Shown: positions 10,077-47,769, numbered from the stretch's first letter. The stretch: DNA of 64,000 bases from Gaiellaceae bacterium (GCA_033857955.1 JAWVCW010000015.1:59514-123513); one strand, 5' to 3'. Program-made: numbers and translations. Notes: generated from the letters alone by a model not told the origin.

Positions 10077-10787
10077 TTGAGGTCGTCTCCGCTCCTCCGA
10101 TGCGGCGCGCTGATCTGCTTCATCGGCGTGCTCCTGGCGCTCGACACGCAGGCGAACGTGCACGCCCAGCTGCTGCTCGGCCTCGCGGCGTGGATCGCGC
10201 TCGTGCTCGCCCTTCGCTGGGTGCGACCGCTCCTGCGCGCGCAGGCCCTCGTGGTGGTCGTCGTCGCGACGTGCGCCGAGGTCGTCGGCTCGCTCATCTG
10301 GGGCGTCTACAGCTACCGGCTCGACAACCTGCCGACGTTCGTTCCGCCCTGTCACGGGCTCGTCTACCTCGCGGGAGCGTCGCTCGCGGTCTGGGCGGCG
10401 TCGAGAAGAGAGCTACTCGTCAGGTTCGCGCTCGTGGCCGTGCTCGCCTGGGGAGTTGCGGGCGTGACGGTCCTGCCGCGAACCGACGTCGGCGGCGCGA
10501 TCGGTGCAGGGATCCTCGCGATCTACCTCGTGCGGGGCCGTGCGCCCGAGGTCTACGCCGGCGTCTTCCTCGTCGTCGCGTGGCTCGAGCTCTATGGAAC
10601 AGCGATCGGAACCTGGGAGTGGGCGGCCATGATTCCCGGAACCGGCGTGCCGCAGGGGAACCCGCCCAGCGGAGTCGCGTCCGGCTACGTCTGGTTCGAC
10701 ATCGTCGCGCTCGCGCTCGCTCCGCGGCTGCTCAGGCTGGCAGGGAGAATCCGATCGGGCTCTCAGGCTCTGCCCGACTCAGCGTAA
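10077..10787 (+). CDS. Polytopic membrane protein (hypothetical)
   Basis: About six hydrophobic helices (LICFIGVLLAL..., LLLGLAAWIALVLAL..., ALVVVVVATCAEVVGSLIW...). The start is uncertain; TTG 10077 is proposed. Confidence 0.55.
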   Translation: MRSSPLLRCGALICFIGVLLALDTQANVHAQLLLGLAAWIALVLALRWVRPLLRAQALVVVVVATCAEVVGSLIWGVYSYRLDNLPTFVPPCHGLVYLAGASLAVWAASRRELLVRFALVAVLAWGVAGVTVLPRTDVGGAIGAGILAIYLVRGRAPEVYAGVFLVVAWLELYGTAIGTWEWAAMIPGTGVPQGNPPSGVASGYVWFDIVALALAPRLLRLAGRIRSGSQALPDSA

Positions 10788-11043
10788 GCCGGCGGATCGC
10801 GCCGACGGGAACGATCAGCTCTTGCGGCTCGCCGTCCTCCGGGTGCGGTACCAGGGTGAGAAAGCCGTAGCCGGGCTCCGCGGAGATCGACGAGAGCCGC
10901 AGCACGGCGCCGTAGGAAAGCTCGACCTCGACCTGCGCCTGCTCGAGCTTCTGTTCGGCCGCGAACGACTCGATCCGCCGGTGGATCCGCGCGACGAGCT
11001 CGTCGAGCGAGGCGGCCGTCCCCGGAATCCAGAGGTCAGGCAT
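10732..11043 (-). CDS. Hypothetical small protein
   Basis: 103-aa ORF with balanced composition (MPDLWIPGTAASLDELVARIHRRIESFAAEQKLEQAQVEVELSYGAVLRL...). Confidence 0.5.
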   Translation of the reverse strand: MPDLWIPGTAASLDELVARIHRRIESFAAEQKLEQAQVEVELSYGAVLRLSSISAEPGYGFLTLVPHPEDGEPQELIVPVGAIRRLTLSRAEPESPIGFSLPA

Positions 11044-11053
11044 CGGCCGGACT

Positions 11054-11200
11054 CTACGGGAGGCCCAGCTCGACGGGCAGCGGCCTCGCGTGGACGACGA
11101 CGAGGGTGGTCGTCGGTCGCGTGAGCGCGACGTAGAGCTCGCGCAGTCCCTGGTCGCGCGCCGCGATGAGGGCCGGCTAGACGACGATCACGTGGTACGC
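11054..11200 (-). pseudogene. Remnant of the C-terminus of an SF1 (UvrD/PcrA-like) helicase or related ATPase, interrupted by an in-frame TAG
   Basis: The minus strand reads YHVIVV*PALIAARDQGLRELYVALTRPTTTLVVVHARPLPVELGLP*. LYVALTR...L resembles helicase motif VI. No upstream body remains, because the fragment abuts the palindromic element at 11221. Confidence 0.4.
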
Positions 11201-11220
11201 AGGCCGTCAAGCGACCAGGA

Positions 11221-11311
11221 CTTTGTGTTTCAGAAACACAAGCGGGGTCCGGCCCGCGCAACCATGCGGTGAGCGAGGAGCTTGTGTTTCAGAAACACAA
11301 GCTCCTCGCTC
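11221..11311 (+). repeat. Paired-palindrome element, copy 1 (CTTGTGTTTC-A-GAAACACAAG, twice)
   Basis: The first palindrome is at 11221-11242 and has one extra T. The second extends to a 41-nt perfect palindrome at 11271-11311 (GAGCGAGGAGCTTGTGTTTC-A-GAAACACAAGCTCCTCGCTC). The same architecture occurs at 22603-22692. Confidence 0.8.
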
Positions 11312-11342
11312 CCGGGAGCGAAGCGACCCTTCAGGGGTCTTG

Positions 11343-11380
11343 GCGCGATCGGAATCCGCTCCCGCGGATTCCGATCGCGC
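11343..11380 (-). terminator. Perfect 17-bp hairpin 4 nt downstream of the ruvB stop codon
   Basis: GCGCGATCGGAATCCGC-TCCC-GCGGATTCCGATCGCGC. A degenerate copy lies inside the 3' end of ruvB (11399-11438). Confidence 0.6.
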
Positions 11381-11384
11381 GCAG

Positions 11385-12428
11385 CTAGAGCTGGTCTTGC
11401 GCGAACGGAATCCGCTCCTGCGGATCCCGTTCCTGCGCCGGAAGAGCAGCACCGACGTGTGCGCGGCCGAGCTTCGTGATCACCCGGCCGCGCGGGGTGC
11501 GCTGGAGAAAGCCGAGCTGGAGCAGGTACGGCTCGTACACGTCCTCGATCGTGTCGGTCTCCTCGCCGAGCGTGACTGCGAGCGTCGACAGGCCGACCGG
11601 GCCGCCTTCGAACTTGAACGCAATCGCGCGTAGGAGCTCGCGATCGGTGCCCTCGAGCCCCTCGCCGTCGATCTCCATCAGCGTCAGCGCCTCACGCGCG
11701 ATCTCATTCGTGATCGCGCCCTGATGGCGCACCTCGGCGACGTCGCGGACACGACGGAGGATCCGGTTCGCGATTCGCGGCGTCCCGCGCGACCGGAGCG
11801 CGATCTCGGTCGCCGCGTCGTCCTCGATCGCGACCCCCAGGATGCCGGCGGACCGGCGCACGATCAGCGTCAGCTGCTCGGGCTCGTAGTAACCGAGCCG
11901 GAAGGTGAGGCCGAAGCGGTCGCGCAGCGGCGTCGTCAGCAGGCCGGTGCGGGTGGTCGCGCCGACGAGCGTGAACGCGGGCAGATCGAGCGTCAGCGTC
12001 CTGGCAGCCGGACCCTGGCCGACGATGATGTCGAGCCGAAAGTCCTCGAGAGCCGGATAGAGGATCTCCTCGATCGAGCGGTTGATGCGGTGGATCTCGT
12101 CGACGAAGAGGACGTCGCGCAGCTCGAGGCTGGTGAGGATGGCGGCCATGTCCCCCTTCCGCTCGAGCGCCGGCCCGGCGATCGTACGGATCCCGACGCC
12201 GAGCTCCTCGCGGATGATCTGCGCCAGCGTGGTCTTGCCGAGCCCGGGCGGGCCGACGAGCAGGACGTGGTCGAGGGCCTCGCCGCGGGCCTTCGCGGCC
12301 GCAAGCGCGATCGCGAGCTGCTCTTTGACGCCCTCCTGGCCGACGAACTCGTCCAGCCGACGCGGGCGGAGCGAGCGCTCGAGCTCCTCCTCGTCGGGGC
12401 TCAGAACCTCCGCGGCCACGGCACTCAC
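11385..12428 (-). CDS. ruvB: Holliday junction branch migration helicase RuvB
   Basis: Walker A motif [11 protein letters not shown], Walker B motif VLFVDEIH and sensor motifs. The ORF overlaps the ruvA stop codon. Confidence 0.97.
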
Positions 12429-23889: not shown

Positions 23890-24068
23890 ATTCGCATCCC
23901 AAGCGCGGATGTGCGATGACTACGCATACCGAACGCGACTCCTCTCCCCCTCCAGACGGAGCGGCCGCCTCGGCGGCTGGGCCGTCTGGCCCAGAAAGGA
24001 GCGTTCGGTAGAGGGGTCTGCTCTTGACGAGTAGACCCCTCGCTTTTGGCGCGCGAAGACCCCTGAAG

Positions 24069-37113: not shown

Positions 37114-37186
37114 TGGGCCCGCCTGGATTCGAACCAGGGCGCGACGGATTATGAGTCCGCTGCTCTAACCGCTGAGCTACGGGCCC
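37114..37186 (-). tRNA. tRNA-Met (anticodon CAT), elongator-type, with no encoded CCA
   Basis: The reverse complement GGGCCCGTAGCTCAGCGGTTAGAGCAGCGGACTCATAATCCGTCGCGCCCTGGTTCGAATCCAGGCGGGCCCA folds as a cloverleaf. Acceptor stem GGGCCCG/CGGGCCC, anticodon loop CTCATAA, T-loop TTCGAAT. The G1-C72 pair argues against an initiator. tRNA-Ile2 with a lysidine-modified CAT anticodon cannot be excluded. Confidence 0.9.
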
Positions 37187-45024: not shown

Positions 45025-45786
45025 TCAACCGACCCAGGCCCCTCCGTTCTGGTCGATCGCCTGGCCTGTAACGCCCCGGGCGTCGTCGGACAGGAGCCAC
45101 GCGACCGTTCCGGCGATGTCCTGCGGCTGGGACATGCGGCCGAGCGGCACCTGCTGCATCGCCTCCCGGTAGGCGTCGTCGCGCGTGCCGCCCGTCGCGG
45201 CAGCCATTCCCTCGAGCCCCTCCCACGCCATGTCGGTGTCCACCCAGCCGGGGCAGATCGCGTTCACCTGGATGTTCTCGCCGGCCAGCTCGGCAGCGAA
45301 GGAGCGGACGAGCCCGAGGAGGCCGGCCTTCGACGCCGAGTACCCGGTGTAGCCCGGAACGGCGATCCGGGCGAGGATCGACGCGATCACGACGAGGTGG
45401 CGAGTGTCGGGCCCGGGAGCGAGATGGCGAAGAGCGGCGCGCGCCGAGTAGTACGTGCCCGAGAGGTTCGTCGCCACGAGATCGTCGAAGCGGTCGCCGG
45501 GGCCGTCGGCGTTCGCGCCGCCGAGCCCGCTGTTGGCGACAAGCGCATGGATCGGACCGCGCTCGGCCGCGGCCGTGGCGAAGACGGCGTCGACCTGGTC
45601 GCGGTCGCGGACGTCGCACGCGGCTGCACCCGCCCCGATCGCAGCGGCCACCTCGCGCAGCCGCTCGAGATCGCGCGCGAGGATCGTCAGTGTCGCGCCC
45701 TCGGCCGCGAGGCGTTCCGCGATCGCCTTCCCGATCCCCTTGCCGCCGCCGGTGACGACGACGTGCTTGCCCGCGAGTCTCTGCAT
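45025..45786 (-). CDS. Short-chain dehydrogenase/reductase (FabG-like)
   Basis: ATG 45786: MQRLAGKHVVVTGGGKGIGKAIA..., then NSG and YSASKAG. Confidence 0.9.
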   Translation of the reverse strand: MQRLAGKHVVVTGGGKGIGKAIAERLAAEGATLTILARDLERLREVAAAIGAGAAACDVRDRDQVDAVFATAAAERGPIHALVANSGLGGANADGPGDRFDDLVATNLSGTYYSARAALRHLAPGPDTRHLVVIASILARIAVPGYTGYSASKAGLLGLVRSFAAELAGENIQVNAICPGWVDTDMAWEGLEGMAAATGGTRDDAYREAMQQVPLGRMSQPQDIAGTVAWLLSDDARGVTGQAIDQNGGAWVG

Positions 45787-45961
45787 CAGTCCCCTTTGTC
45801 GCTCTTTGCGTGAACTTTCGCCCAGGTTCGCTCTTGCGGCCCGGTGTGTCCGAGCATAGATTCCTGGTTCGCCGCGGCCCGTTCCTTCGGTCACCCCGCC
45901 CGGCCACCTCTCCTAGTACGTCTTGCACGATCGACAAACCAACCCGTTGATTAAAGAAAAA

Positions 45962-45976
45962 GTCGCAATTTGCGAC
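45962..45976. promoter_or_regulatory. Operator-like palindrome GTCGCAA-T-TTGCGAC, centred 27 bp upstream of the -35 hexamer (second copy at 46310-46322)
   Basis: Perfect 7-nt arms in copy 1 and 5 of 6 in copy 2 (TCGCAA-T-TTGCGG). Spacing to the promoter is identical in both. Confidence 0.45.
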
Positions 45977-45995
45977 CACGGTCCTCGGAGCTCCC

Positions 45996-46024
45996 TTGAC
46001 GCTCGCGCGGCCCGGCCCTAGGTT
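45996..46024 (+). promoter_or_regulatory. Sigma-70-like promoter candidate: TTGACG, 17 nt, TAGGTT
   Basis: The hexamers are similar and the 17-nt spacing is the same in both copies, while the spacer sequence diverges. An AT-rich stretch lies upstream. Confidence 0.45.
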
Positions 46025-46030
46025 CCCCCT

Positions 46031-46193
46031 TGCAGCGAGCACGGAGCGAGATTAGGTCGAGGCTCCACCGGAGGACGAGTAGGCGGAAGCCGAAACGTCA
46101 GTCGGAGGAGCGGACGAAATCGCCACCGACTCGCTGAATTTTTTGTGGCGCAGTCGGAAACCGGATCTGCGGCAGCAGATCCGGTTTCGCGCC
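46031..46193 (+). ncRNA. Candidate structured RNA, copy 1 (unclassified; riboswitch-like or sRNA)
   Basis: Closing stem CAGCGAG/CTCGCTG. Inner stem GCTCCACCG/CGGAGGAGC. Conserved GTAGGCGGAAGCCGAAA (GGC-GGAA-GCC hairpin). 3' hairpin GGCGC..GAAACCGGATCTGC-GGCA-GCAGATCCGGTTTC-GCGCC. Confidence 0.5.
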
Positions 46194-46342
46194 AAGATCC
46201 CTGAAGCTGCTTGGGTCGGGTTCGGGGCTCACTCATCTCTCTCGCTCGCTGGGATCAGTGACCGACGTTAAGGCGTCGATCGCAAATCTATGCCTTCTTA
46301 AGGAAAAGATCGCAATTTGCGGACTTCGCGTTTTTGGAGCCC

Positions 46343-46371
46343 TTGCGCACTGTCTTGATCGGCCCTAGATT
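46343..46371 (+). promoter_or_regulatory. Sigma-70-like promoter candidate: TTGCGC, 17 nt, TAGATT
   Basis: Equivalent position in module 2. Confidence 0.45.
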
Positions 46372-46377
46372 CGTCCT

Positions 46378-46539
46378 TGCAGCGAGCACGGGACGCGAGT
46401 AGGTCGAGTCCACACCGGTAGGCCGTAGGCGGAAGCCGAAAGTCCGTCGGTGTGGCGGACGAAAGCGCACCCGGCTCGCTGAATTTCTTTGTGGCGCAAT
46501 CGGAAACCGGATCTGCGGAAGCAGATCCGGTTTCGCGCC
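46378..46539 (+). ncRNA. Candidate structured RNA, copy 2, 79 nt upstream of the MFS transporter ATG
   Basis: Same architecture as copy 1. The inner stem becomes CCACACCG/CGGTGTGG, which is a compensatory change relative to copy 1. Confidence 0.5.
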
Positions 46540-46617
46540 AAGATCCCTGAAGCTGCTTGGGTTGGATTCGGGGCTCGCTCATCCTTTCTGGCTTGGCTCA
46601 GCCGGTAACGTCGGGCC

Positions 46618-47769
46618 ATGCGTCGCCTTCTCATGCTCGTGTGCGTGATCGTGTTTGTTGACGCGATGTTGTTTGGCGCGCTCGCGCCGCTCGTGCCCGG
46701 CTACGCCGAGGTGTTCGGGCTCTCGACGACAGGCGCCGGGTTGCTCGTGGGCTCGTTCGGCGCCGGCGCTGTGCTCGGCGCGATCCCCGGTGGCCTGGCC
46801 GCGGCGAGATTCGGCCCGAAGCCCGCCGTCGTCGCAGGACTCGTCCTGCTCGCCTTCGCCAGCTTCGCCTTCGCCGCCGCTGACGGGGCGTGGGCACTCG
46901 GGCTCGCTCGGCTCGTCCAGGGAGTCTCGAGCACGATCACCTGGGCCGGCGCGTTTGCCTGGTTGACCGTCGCCACACCGCGGGAACGTCGTGGCGAGGT
47001 GATCGGCACGGCGTTCGCCGCGGCTGTGTTCGGCGCCATCCTCGGCCCGATGTTCGGCGCCATCGCCGACGCCGTCAGCGTCCGCGTCTTCTTCGCGGCT
47101 GTCGGCCTCGTCGCGGCGGCACTCGCCGCGGCGGCCGCTACCCGTCCGGGCTCGCCTGCAGAGAGGCACGCGCCCGGCGCGGCCAGACGAGCCTTCGCCG
47201 ACCGCAGCTTCCTCGGCGGACTCTGGCTGAACACCCTCCCCGCTCTCCTCTTCGGGATGCTCGTCGTCCTCGTCCCGCTCCAGCTCGACGAAGGAGGCTT
47301 CACGCCATTCGCCGTCGGCACCGTCTTCCTCCTCGCCGGGCTCCTCGAGACCGTCGTCAACCCACTCCTCGGCCGTTTCTCCGACCGACGCGGCCGCCTG
47401 CTCCCGATCCGGGCCGCGCTCGCCGGCTCGATCGCCGTCGCGCTCGCGTTCGCGGTCGCACGCGACCCGTACGCGATCGCGTTCCTGGCCGTGCTCGCGG
47501 CGCTCTCGTTCGGGGCCTTCTACACACCGGGGATCGCGCTCGTCTCAGACCGCACGGAGGCGGCCGGTCTCTCGCAGGCACTCGGCTTCGGGATCATGAA
47601 CACGGCGTGGGCGCTCGGGAACATGAGCGGCCCGCCGCTGTCGGGCGTGGTCGCGGACGCAGCCGGGGAGGGAGTCCCCTACGTGCTCGCCGCCATCCTT
47701 TGCGCGCTCACGCTCGCTGCGACGTTGCGGCTGAGCTCGCGAGCGGGAACCGCTCGAGCACCCACCTAG
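46618..47769 (+). CDS. MFS transporter
   Basis: 383 aa with about 12 TM helices. Confidence 0.88.
   Translation: MRRLLMLVCVIVFVDAMLFGALAPLVPGYAEVFGLSTTGAGLLVGSFGAGAVLGAIPGGLAAARFGPKPAVVAGLVLLAFASFAFAAADGAWALGLARLVQGVSSTITWAGAFAWLTVATPRERRGEVIGTAFAAAVFGAILGPMFGAIADAVSVRVFFAAVGLVAAALAAAAATRPGSPAERHAPGAARRAFADRSFLGGLWLNTLPALLFGMLVVLVPLQLDEGGFTPFAVGTVFLLAGLLETVVNPLLGRFSDRRGRLLPIRAALAGSIAVALAFAVARDPYAIAFLAVLAALSFGAFYTPGIALVSDRTEAAGLSQALGFGIMNTAWALGNMSGPPLSGVVADAAGEGVPYVLAAILCALTLAATLRLSSRAGTARAPT

Follow-up and report, generated by a model that had tools for sequence, protein, structure and literature searches.

The region between the SDR and MFS genes

The window analysed in this study is a stretch of 64,000 nucleotides from the genome of a Gaiellaceae bacterium (GCA_033857955.1, JAWVCW010000015.1:59514-123513) with a G+C content of 68.7%, and positions given without a locus number are counted within it. 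Between an SDR gene and an MFS transporter gene it carries two copies of a structured RNA of 106-108 nt, called rod RNA in the following, each of which is preceded by conserved promoter elements; the two copies are probably paralogous genes for autonomous, trans-acting structured small RNAs (sRNAs). The SDR gene (45025-45789, minus strand; Pfam adh_short_C2, E=1e-54) is divergent from RNA copy 1, and the MFS gene (46618-47769, plus strand; Pfam MFS_1, E=6e-49) is a neighbour that lies outside the RNA unit.

The gap between these two genes comprises 828 bp (45790-46617). An initial annotation, made from the sequence alone, had described a gap of about 830 bp with two homologous modules, which agrees well with the tandem duplication found here: the period is 345-347 bp, and the pairwise alignment of 45930-46276 with 46277-46622 gives a mean column identity of 87%. 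The 17-mer GTAGGCGGAAGCCGAAA is found exactly twice in the window, with 0.16 occurrences expected. In each module an A-rich tract is followed by a palindrome, by -35 and -10 hexamers with a 17-nt spacer, and, at a distance of seven nucleotides, by a segment closed by CAGCGAG/CTCGCTG.

No exact record was found for the MFS protein of the window, and its homologs, which are labelled Gaiellaceae (Actinomycetota), served to reach syntenic loci. Four syntenic contigs (L001-L004) all hold both RNA copies. Among these orthologs a core of about 110 nt is almost invariant, and the promoter spacers and the other flanks diverge.

A conserved RNA core with covarying helices

Both cores lie on the plus strand, core 1 (paralog type A, 108 nt) at 46031-46138 and core 2 (paralog type B, 106 nt) at 46378-46483. 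Their minimum free energy folds have -50.5 kcal/mol (z=-5.1) and -56.4 kcal/mol (z=-4.7), respectively. The fold is a single long irregular hairpin of 31 pairs, which are arranged in five short helices and capped by a GNRA tip; the largest internal loop measures 6x4 nt. In core 1 the tip is GGAA and the loops are GUA/GAAA and UAGGUCGAG/GGACGAAA. Across the family the invariant loop parts are UAGGNCGAR opposite GGACGAAAG, and N-GUA/GAAA around a stem of 3-4 bp with the GNRA tip. The constancy of the loops is partly built in, as the scan patterns demanded most of the invariant loop residues; variation in the loops is visible in model matches that escaped these patterns.

A pattern scan with one genome per species revealed 43 loci, all of them in metagenome-assembled genomes assigned to Gaiellaceae, Gaiellales, Thermoleophilia or 'Actinomycetes'. 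The consensus fold and a covariance model were built from an alignment of 45 distinct cores. This model gave 81 strong matches of at least 76 bits each, and only the two cores described above (114.3 bits, E=8e-23 for core 1 and 126.6 bits, E=1e-25 for core 2) are located in the window. Together with a scan of soil metagenomes (at least 120 contigs) the family amounts to at least 176 core-model matches in at least 124 related loci, which come from genome bins of Gaiellales and from soil metagenomes.

The helices are strongly supported by covariation. For the genome loci (53 distinct sequences) 98.7% of the alignment cells are paired, versus 25-38% with slid partners, and changes on both sides are seen at 13 of the 31 pairs. 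The soil-metagenome loci form an independent set, in which the 95 distinct sequences among the matches listed are paired in 94.9% of the cells versus 27-38% with slid partners, with both sides changed at 25 of the 31 pairs. The compensatory differences between the inner stems of the two copies, from which selection on RNA structure had initially been proposed, are therefore real and belong to a much larger pattern of covariation in the homologs. The third helix is nearly invariant in sequence across the Gaiellaceae in type A and covaries in type B.

Thermodynamic folding is about equal on both strands. The strand is fixed by G-U pairs, which are common at several positions (41 of 53 sequences at one pair of the genome set); a minus-strand RNA would have A-C mismatches there, and this places the RNA on the plus strand. 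Together with the promoter elements and the U-tracts described below this supports the initial view that each module consists of a promoter and a structured RNA on the plus strand. The closure by CAGCGAG/CTCGCTG also stands, but the length of about 160 nt given with it does not, since the real core has 106-108 nt with a U-tract directly behind it. Two open reading frames on the minus strand, 46018-46236 and 46298-46582, were rejected as coding sequences because single-base indels separate the copies and the variation tracks base pairing.

Several variants of the core were noticed. Apical insertions are present in L097 and L108. A variant with 52% G+C is found in contigs of 68-69% G+C (L064, 2805-2916, minus strand; L079, 12316-12426, plus strand; L094, 2388-2499, minus strand); it is divergent from a CBS and pyridine-nucleotide-disulphide oxidoreductase gene in L079 and L094, and in L064 and L094 a canonical terminator stands behind it. 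Triple tandems exist in L058 (4206-4774), L072 (3102-3684) and L117 (1155-1724), with the SDR/MFS context shown for L058 and L072. Their copies 2 and 3 are strongly diverged (38-58 bits) and have a UUCG tip and no GUA/GAAA loop, and each diverged copy keeps its own palindrome and promoter.

Conserved elements upstream of the RNA

The module of copy 1 begins with the A-rich tract TTAAAGAAAAA (45951-45961, plus strand), which lies upstream of the promoter and is possibly UP-element-like. It is followed by the palindrome GTCGCAA-T-TTGCGAC (GTCGCAATTTGCGAC, 45962-45976), whose centre is located about 64 nt upstream of the predicted transcript start, and by the putative promoter (45996-46024, plus strand) with the -35 hexamer TTGACG (45996-46001), 17 nt and the -10 hexamer TAGGTT (46019-46024). 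Copy 2 has the corresponding A-rich tract at 46298-46309, the palindrome TCGCAATTTGCG at 46310-46321 and a putative promoter at 46343-46371 (plus strand) with TTGCGC (46343-46348), 17 nt and TAGATT (46366-46371).

The same order is fixed in 76 distinct upstream sequences of the family: a GCAA box at about -95, the A-rich tract, CGCAA-N-TTGCG at about -64, CTTGnn, 17-18 variable nucleotides and TAnnnT, which is separated by about 6 nt from the UGC that opens the first stem. A tract of the AAGGAAAA type is kept at the same position in these sequences, and the CGCAA-N-TTGCG core has a fixed distance from the -35 hexamer in almost all family copies. The hexamers and their spacing are constant and the spacer sequence is variable across orthologs as well as paralogs. 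Hexamers that are held in place while the spacer changes are the signature of a real plus-strand promoter, so that the promoter-like hexamers, the 17-nt spacing and the diverging spacer of the initial annotation now have the backing of the whole set of upstream sequences. The order is also present at internal, second and third tandem copies. With an apparent promoter of its own at a fixed distance upstream, the RNA matches what defines a stand-alone sRNA gene. A generic sigma-70 scan called neither of these two promoters, since TAGGTT and TAGATT each share only 3 of 6 positions with TATAAT.

The palindrome is a candidate operator for a transcription factor. It was compared with ClgR, PurR and CRP-type sites, none of which is known to fit it in spacing.

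A third promoter-like element was observed immediately upstream of the SDR gene (45834-45862, plus strand; TTGCGG, 17 nt, TAGATT). On the minus strand a TATGCT -10-like box (45853-45858) overlaps with it, and a block GAGCATAGATTCCTGGTTCGCCGC at this element is kept in 5 of 5 orthologous gaps, including that of L003, which lacks the SDR gene. The RNA model finds no third core at the 45834-45862 element.

The 3' flank and a dispersed repeat

Two nucleotides past the closing stem of core 1 a U6 tract (46139-46144, plus strand) is read from the sequence, which is a putative point of intrinsic termination. Behind core 2 the corresponding tract is UUUCUUU (46484-46490, plus strand). Of 171 distinct flanks, 120 show a U-rich tract immediately behind the core, and in another 27 a hairpin and then a T-run follow (147/171 altogether); textbook terminators are found behind the core in divergent lineages. 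In its predicted terminator and its independence from the neighbouring genes, whose kind and orientation vary, the RNA again matches what defines a stand-alone sRNA gene. In many copies UGGUCC stands right behind the U-tract (GAAUUUUUUUGGUCC; L007, L017, L025, L136, L148, L111, L052 and others). The GGUC of the invariant UAGGUCGAG loop recurs in this hexamer, and competition for GGAC is conceivable in principle.

The initial annotation let the RNA end in a bulged hairpin of 19 bp. This could not be upheld, because the hairpin is part of a separate repeat. Copy 1 of this repeat, consisting of hairpin, box and tail, spans 46146-46237 (plus strand), with the hairpin at 46146-46194 (6+14 bp) and the box GCGCCAAGATCCCTGAAG at 46189-46206; copy 2 spans 46492-46583 (plus strand), with the hairpin at 46492-46540 and the box at 46535-46552. 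The identity of 46146-46237 with 46485-46583 is 94% and thereby above that of the RNA cores. Two further copies of the 18-nt box, at 11329-11346 (minus strand) and 24051-24068 (plus strand), stand beside hairpins without an RNA core in the vicinity. The repeat thus consists of a long GC-rich hairpin followed by the box GCGCSAAGAYCCCTGAAG, of which there are four exact copies in 64 kb, with 0.34 expected even if three mismatches are allowed. The long perfect hairpin after copy 1 is absent from L003 and L004 and is thus outside the conserved core, and the box accompanies 50 of 171 cores, about 57-59 nt 3' of the core. The 3' hairpin and box are a separate dispersed intergenic repeat of this lineage, which may be a REP-like (repetitive extragenic palindromic) or terminator-type element of the Gaiellaceae and may act here as a back-up terminator.

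Elsewhere in the window, the region 10306-12425 (about 2.1 kb) holds no open reading frame with the strong third-position G+C bias of its neighbours. It contains several long perfect hairpins, including two of the type found 3' of the RNA cores.

Genomic context across the family

All numbers on locus context, gene order and orientation refer to the loci listed, of which there are at least 124. The RNA is present in 1-3 copies per locus. The starts of same-strand tandem copies are separated by 219-493 bp; in one pair the two copies are on opposite strands. The arrangement of SDR gene, RNAs and MFS gene occurs in at least about 38 loci, and the position before this MFS gene is restricted to Gaiellaceae. 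For the SDR/MFS loci the paralog order is A-B in 18 and B-A in 9 cases; both orders occur, so the copy that adjoins the MFS gene is not fixed.

The MFS gene of the window has a TAACGT box (46606-46611, plus strand) 6 nt before its ATG. In 27 of 27 distinct syntenic sequences GGTAACGT is found 6-10 nt before the ATG or GTG, the sequence upstream of it diverges, and no Shine-Dalgarno sequence is visible before the MFS gene. TAACGT would therefore seem to be the -10 box (TANNNT) of the MFS gene itself and to give rise to a leaderless mRNA.

In most other loci the RNA lies between a gene for a 78-aa two-helix membrane protein and a sigA-like gene, which encodes a full-length sigma-70 factor with regions 1.1 to 4. 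Near these sigma-type loci a second sigma gene, a phosphoribosyltransferase gene and two uncharacterised genes are found. Of the 41 loci listed with the 78-aa gene, 29 have it on the strand of the RNA and downstream of it, and 12 have it upstream on the other strand. Where the RNA points at the sigma gene, the conserved ACTTGACATAAC promoter region of the sigma gene intervenes. In L006 and L052 the next gene runs towards the RNA at a distance of 4-14 nt, and L013 is likewise convergent. Other neighbours are a CBS/pyridine-nucleotide oxidoreductase, a HAD hydrolase and an EamA transporter.

The 78-aa protein has two predicted membrane helices and no Pfam match and is the commonest immediate neighbour of the RNA (for example L005, 4926-5117, minus strand; L008, 5122-5352, plus strand; L046, 996-1232, minus strand; L014, 175-411, plus strand; and about 40 more loci). 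A TAGGAT box 6-8 nt before the start of its gene may be either the -10 box of a leaderless mRNA or a Shine-Dalgarno sequence. In lineages with the sigma locus a direct repeat TGTGGAAA-TGTGGAAAA lies about 80-95 nt upstream of the RNA promoter (L008, 4540-4620; L013, L016, L029, L046 and others), and it also precedes second tandem copies. This repeat resembles a reversed DnaA-box-like motif.

Relation to known RNA families

With the covariance models of Rfam 15 a single match at gathering score was obtained for the whole window, a tRNA gene at 37114-37186 (minus strand, 71 bits). At E<=10 the region 45800-46700 gave two chance matches of 12-15 bits, with cut-offs at 40-80, and the RNA in five homologous loci gave zero matches. 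This fits the initial impression that the RNA belongs to no known family. No description of rod RNA was found in the literature on non-coding RNAs of Gaiellales or Thermoleophilia. Viral contigs gave zero matches to the RNA, and a phage or mobile origin was rejected on that ground. We rate rod RNA as a well supported new family of stand-alone structured bacterial sRNAs.

The adjacency to sigma genes prompted a comparison with 6S and Ms1 RNA, which was rejected because size and shape do not fit: these RNAs have about 160-300 nt and a large central bubble, while the rod RNA core has 106-108 nt and no loop larger than 6x4 nt. RNAs under about 150-160 nt are treated as too short for 6S/Ms1 (PMC9130861). 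HAD hydrolases beside the RNA, found in only two loci (L059 and L066), match PF00702/PF13419. They do not look like the HAD-IB type known from Ms1 synteny. The signal recognition particle (SRP) RNA and Y RNA were considered from the shape; there was no model match and no Ro/TROVE gene nearby. For the small SRP RNA (Rfam Bacteria_small_SRP) this holds even at E<=10 over the region searched, and a tandem of diverged paralogs would be atypical for SRP RNA.

Interpretation and alternative explanations

The duplication, the covarying fold on the plus strand, the conserved promoter elements and U-tracts and the variable context are all in keeping with two paralogous, autonomous sRNA genes, and we hold it to be probable that the modules are such genes and that their products act in trans. 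With less confidence we suppose that rod RNA probably acts by binding a protein. Transcription of each copy would run along the plus strand from a housekeeping-type promoter of its own (TTGnnn-17-TAnnnT), starting at about 46031-46033 in copy 1 and 46378-46380 in copy 2, and a factor bound to the CGCAA-T-TTGCG palindrome near -64 would probably control this transcription. The transcript is predicted to fold at once into the irregular rod with its GNRA tetraloop and its invariant purine-rich internal loops. The GC-rich base of the rod and the following GAA-U6 would end it at about 112-115 nt, and the repeat hairpin would catch read-through. The loops are the most likely recognition surface, since the helices covary freely and the loops are invariant, and they would be recognized by a conserved protein or ribonucleoprotein (RNP) partner, with the RNA acting in trans. 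The MFS gene would have a leaderless mRNA, made from a -10 box of its own.

Some points weigh against this interpretation. The start and end of the transcript, and its expression itself, are predictions from the sequence, and protein binding is a supposition drawn from the invariance of the loops and the covariation of the helices. The U-tract of the window stands 2 nt off the stem and is interrupted in copy 2, and the next hairpin has no U tail. Moreover, at least 38 loci have the MFS gene downstream of the unit on the same strand, and at least 29 have the 78-aa gene there at only 40-110 nt, so that read-through into these genes is possible.

This same-strand position is also the best argument for a cis-acting leader or riboswitch, in which the rod would be an aptamer that senses a ligand or protein, and the closing stem with the U-tract a conditional terminator that gates the MFS or 78-aa gene. 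The very high conservation of the loops, as in aptamers, and the U-tract that abuts the closing stem would suit such a function; tandem riboswitches are an established phenomenon, and tandem copies would sharpen the response. We nevertheless consider a leader unlikely. A conserved promoter of its own is found at every copy, including internal tandem copies. Among the 41 loci with the 78-aa gene the unit is inverted in 12, and it is convergent with the neighbouring gene in L006, L013 and L052. A consistent place in the 5' untranslated region of related genes was not found among the loci listed, because of these inversions and because the genes downstream are functionally unrelated (MFS transporter, small membrane protein, sigma factor, HAD hydrolase, EamA transporter). 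Either paralog may stand beside the MFS gene, which carries a -10-like box of its own and lacks a Shine-Dalgarno sequence. No alternative, antiterminator pairing was seen in the flanks, though no systematic search for it was made. Of the two possibilities left side by side in the initial annotation, a pair of sRNA genes or tandem riboswitch-like leaders, the first is thus retained and the second is not favoured, on account of the varying context and orientation, the varying paralog before the MFS gene and the -10-like box of the latter.

Autonomous tandem genes with operator-like palindromes close to the promoter would also suit base-pairing trans-acting sRNAs of the PrrF1/PrrF2 or OmrA/OmrB kind, whose conserved segments pair with target mRNAs; regulated tandem sRNA pairs show a similar architecture, and the near-invariance of the third helix in type A, against its covariation in type B, may point to a sequence-specific role of type A. 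But nearly all of the RNA is locked in a stable rod of -50 to -56 kcal/mol, and its conserved unpaired residues form short purine-rich loops and no long accessible seed. No complementarity to a target was identified, and to our knowledge Hfq is generally absent from Actinobacteria. Base pairing as the mode of action therefore appears improbable to us.

More specific is the idea of a lineage-specific housekeeping RNP RNA of the Gaiellales, notably a small regulator that binds RNA polymerase or SigA like 6S, Ms1 and CoRP, on a different and much shorter scaffold. It is kept in view because the RNA recurs beside sigA and because an actinobacterial CoRP exists. If true, it would explain the location beside sigA in most lineages, the strong regulated promoter and the invariant loops. 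We regard it as a doubtful proposal with a small chance of being correct.

A feature of the DNA or of the minus strand, be it a regulatory region that was duplicated, a repeat element or an RNA of the minus strand with its end at the palindrome and T-run, is very improbable. The palindrome followed by TTTTTCTTT scores as terminator-like on the minus strand, if weakly, both strands fold about equally well and the 3' hairpin with its box is indeed a dispersed repeat. But read from the minus strand the frequent G-U pairs would become A-C, it is the plus strand that carries the promoter hexamers and U-tracts, the core is found singly or in tandem at its loci and is not dispersed, it has zero viral matches, and a coding sequence is ruled out by the single-base indels between the copies. 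The minus-strand RNA in particular was rejected on the G-U covariation and the plus-strand signals.

For annotation this means that the long gap before the MFS gene is probably best described as two independent RNA genes with copies of a dispersed repeat, and not as a leader of the transporter. Gaiellales are abundant soil actinobacteria which are almost entirely uncultured, and we know of nothing that has been reported on their RNA biology. With its conserved, apparently regulated promoter and its recurrence beside the principal sigma-factor gene, the rod RNA family makes a concrete candidate for an RNA with a regulatory or ribonucleoprotein function throughout the lineage.

Comparison with known systems

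The apical part of the rod, N-G-U-A/G-A-A-A with a stem of 3-4 bp and a GNRA loop, has the sequence signature of a bulged-G (sarcin-ricin/loop E) module. No variation is seen in the alignments at the apical residues G, U, A and G, A, A. The resemblance is one of sequence only. At the position of the would-be bulged G in the lower loop (GAGUAG/GAAA) G, U and C all occur, and the diverged paralogs of the triple tandems have a UUCG tip in place of the motif.

With tandem and orphan riboswitches rod RNA shares the highly conserved loops, the covarying stems, the U-tract at the closing stem and the frequent position before a gene for a membrane protein or transporter. In contrast to these, each rod RNA copy has its own promoter, the orientation and the downstream gene vary, and convergent cases exist.

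A long irregular hairpin that joins the 5' and 3' ends is also the basic shape of 6S, Ms1, CoRP and 4.5S SRP RNA. Further common traits are conserved internal loops within covarying helices, lineage-wide occurrence and a strong promoter of their own, and with 4.5S RNA also the GNRA tip. Rod RNA differs from 6S and Ms1 in its short core without a central bubble and in the missing Rfam match. The polymerase-binding RNAs 6S, Ms1 and CoRP come to mind also because rod RNA lies beside a sigA-like gene in most lineages, and lineage-specific RNAs of this kind do exist in Actinobacteria, for example CoRP (PMC11077062).

The gene arrangement finds its closest parallels in PrrF1/PrrF2 of Pseudomonas, OmrA/OmrB of E. 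coli and AbcR1/AbcR2 of the Rhizobiales, which are likewise head-to-tail paralogs with their own promoter, an operator-like site and a terminator. There is no relation in sequence or by Rfam between any of them and rod RNA, and they act via accessible seeds, often together with Hfq, whereas rod RNA is almost fully paired and exposes short purine loops. What they have in common is the tandem itself, as the two to three rod RNA paralogs are, like those of other tandem sRNAs, kept over long evolutionary distances.

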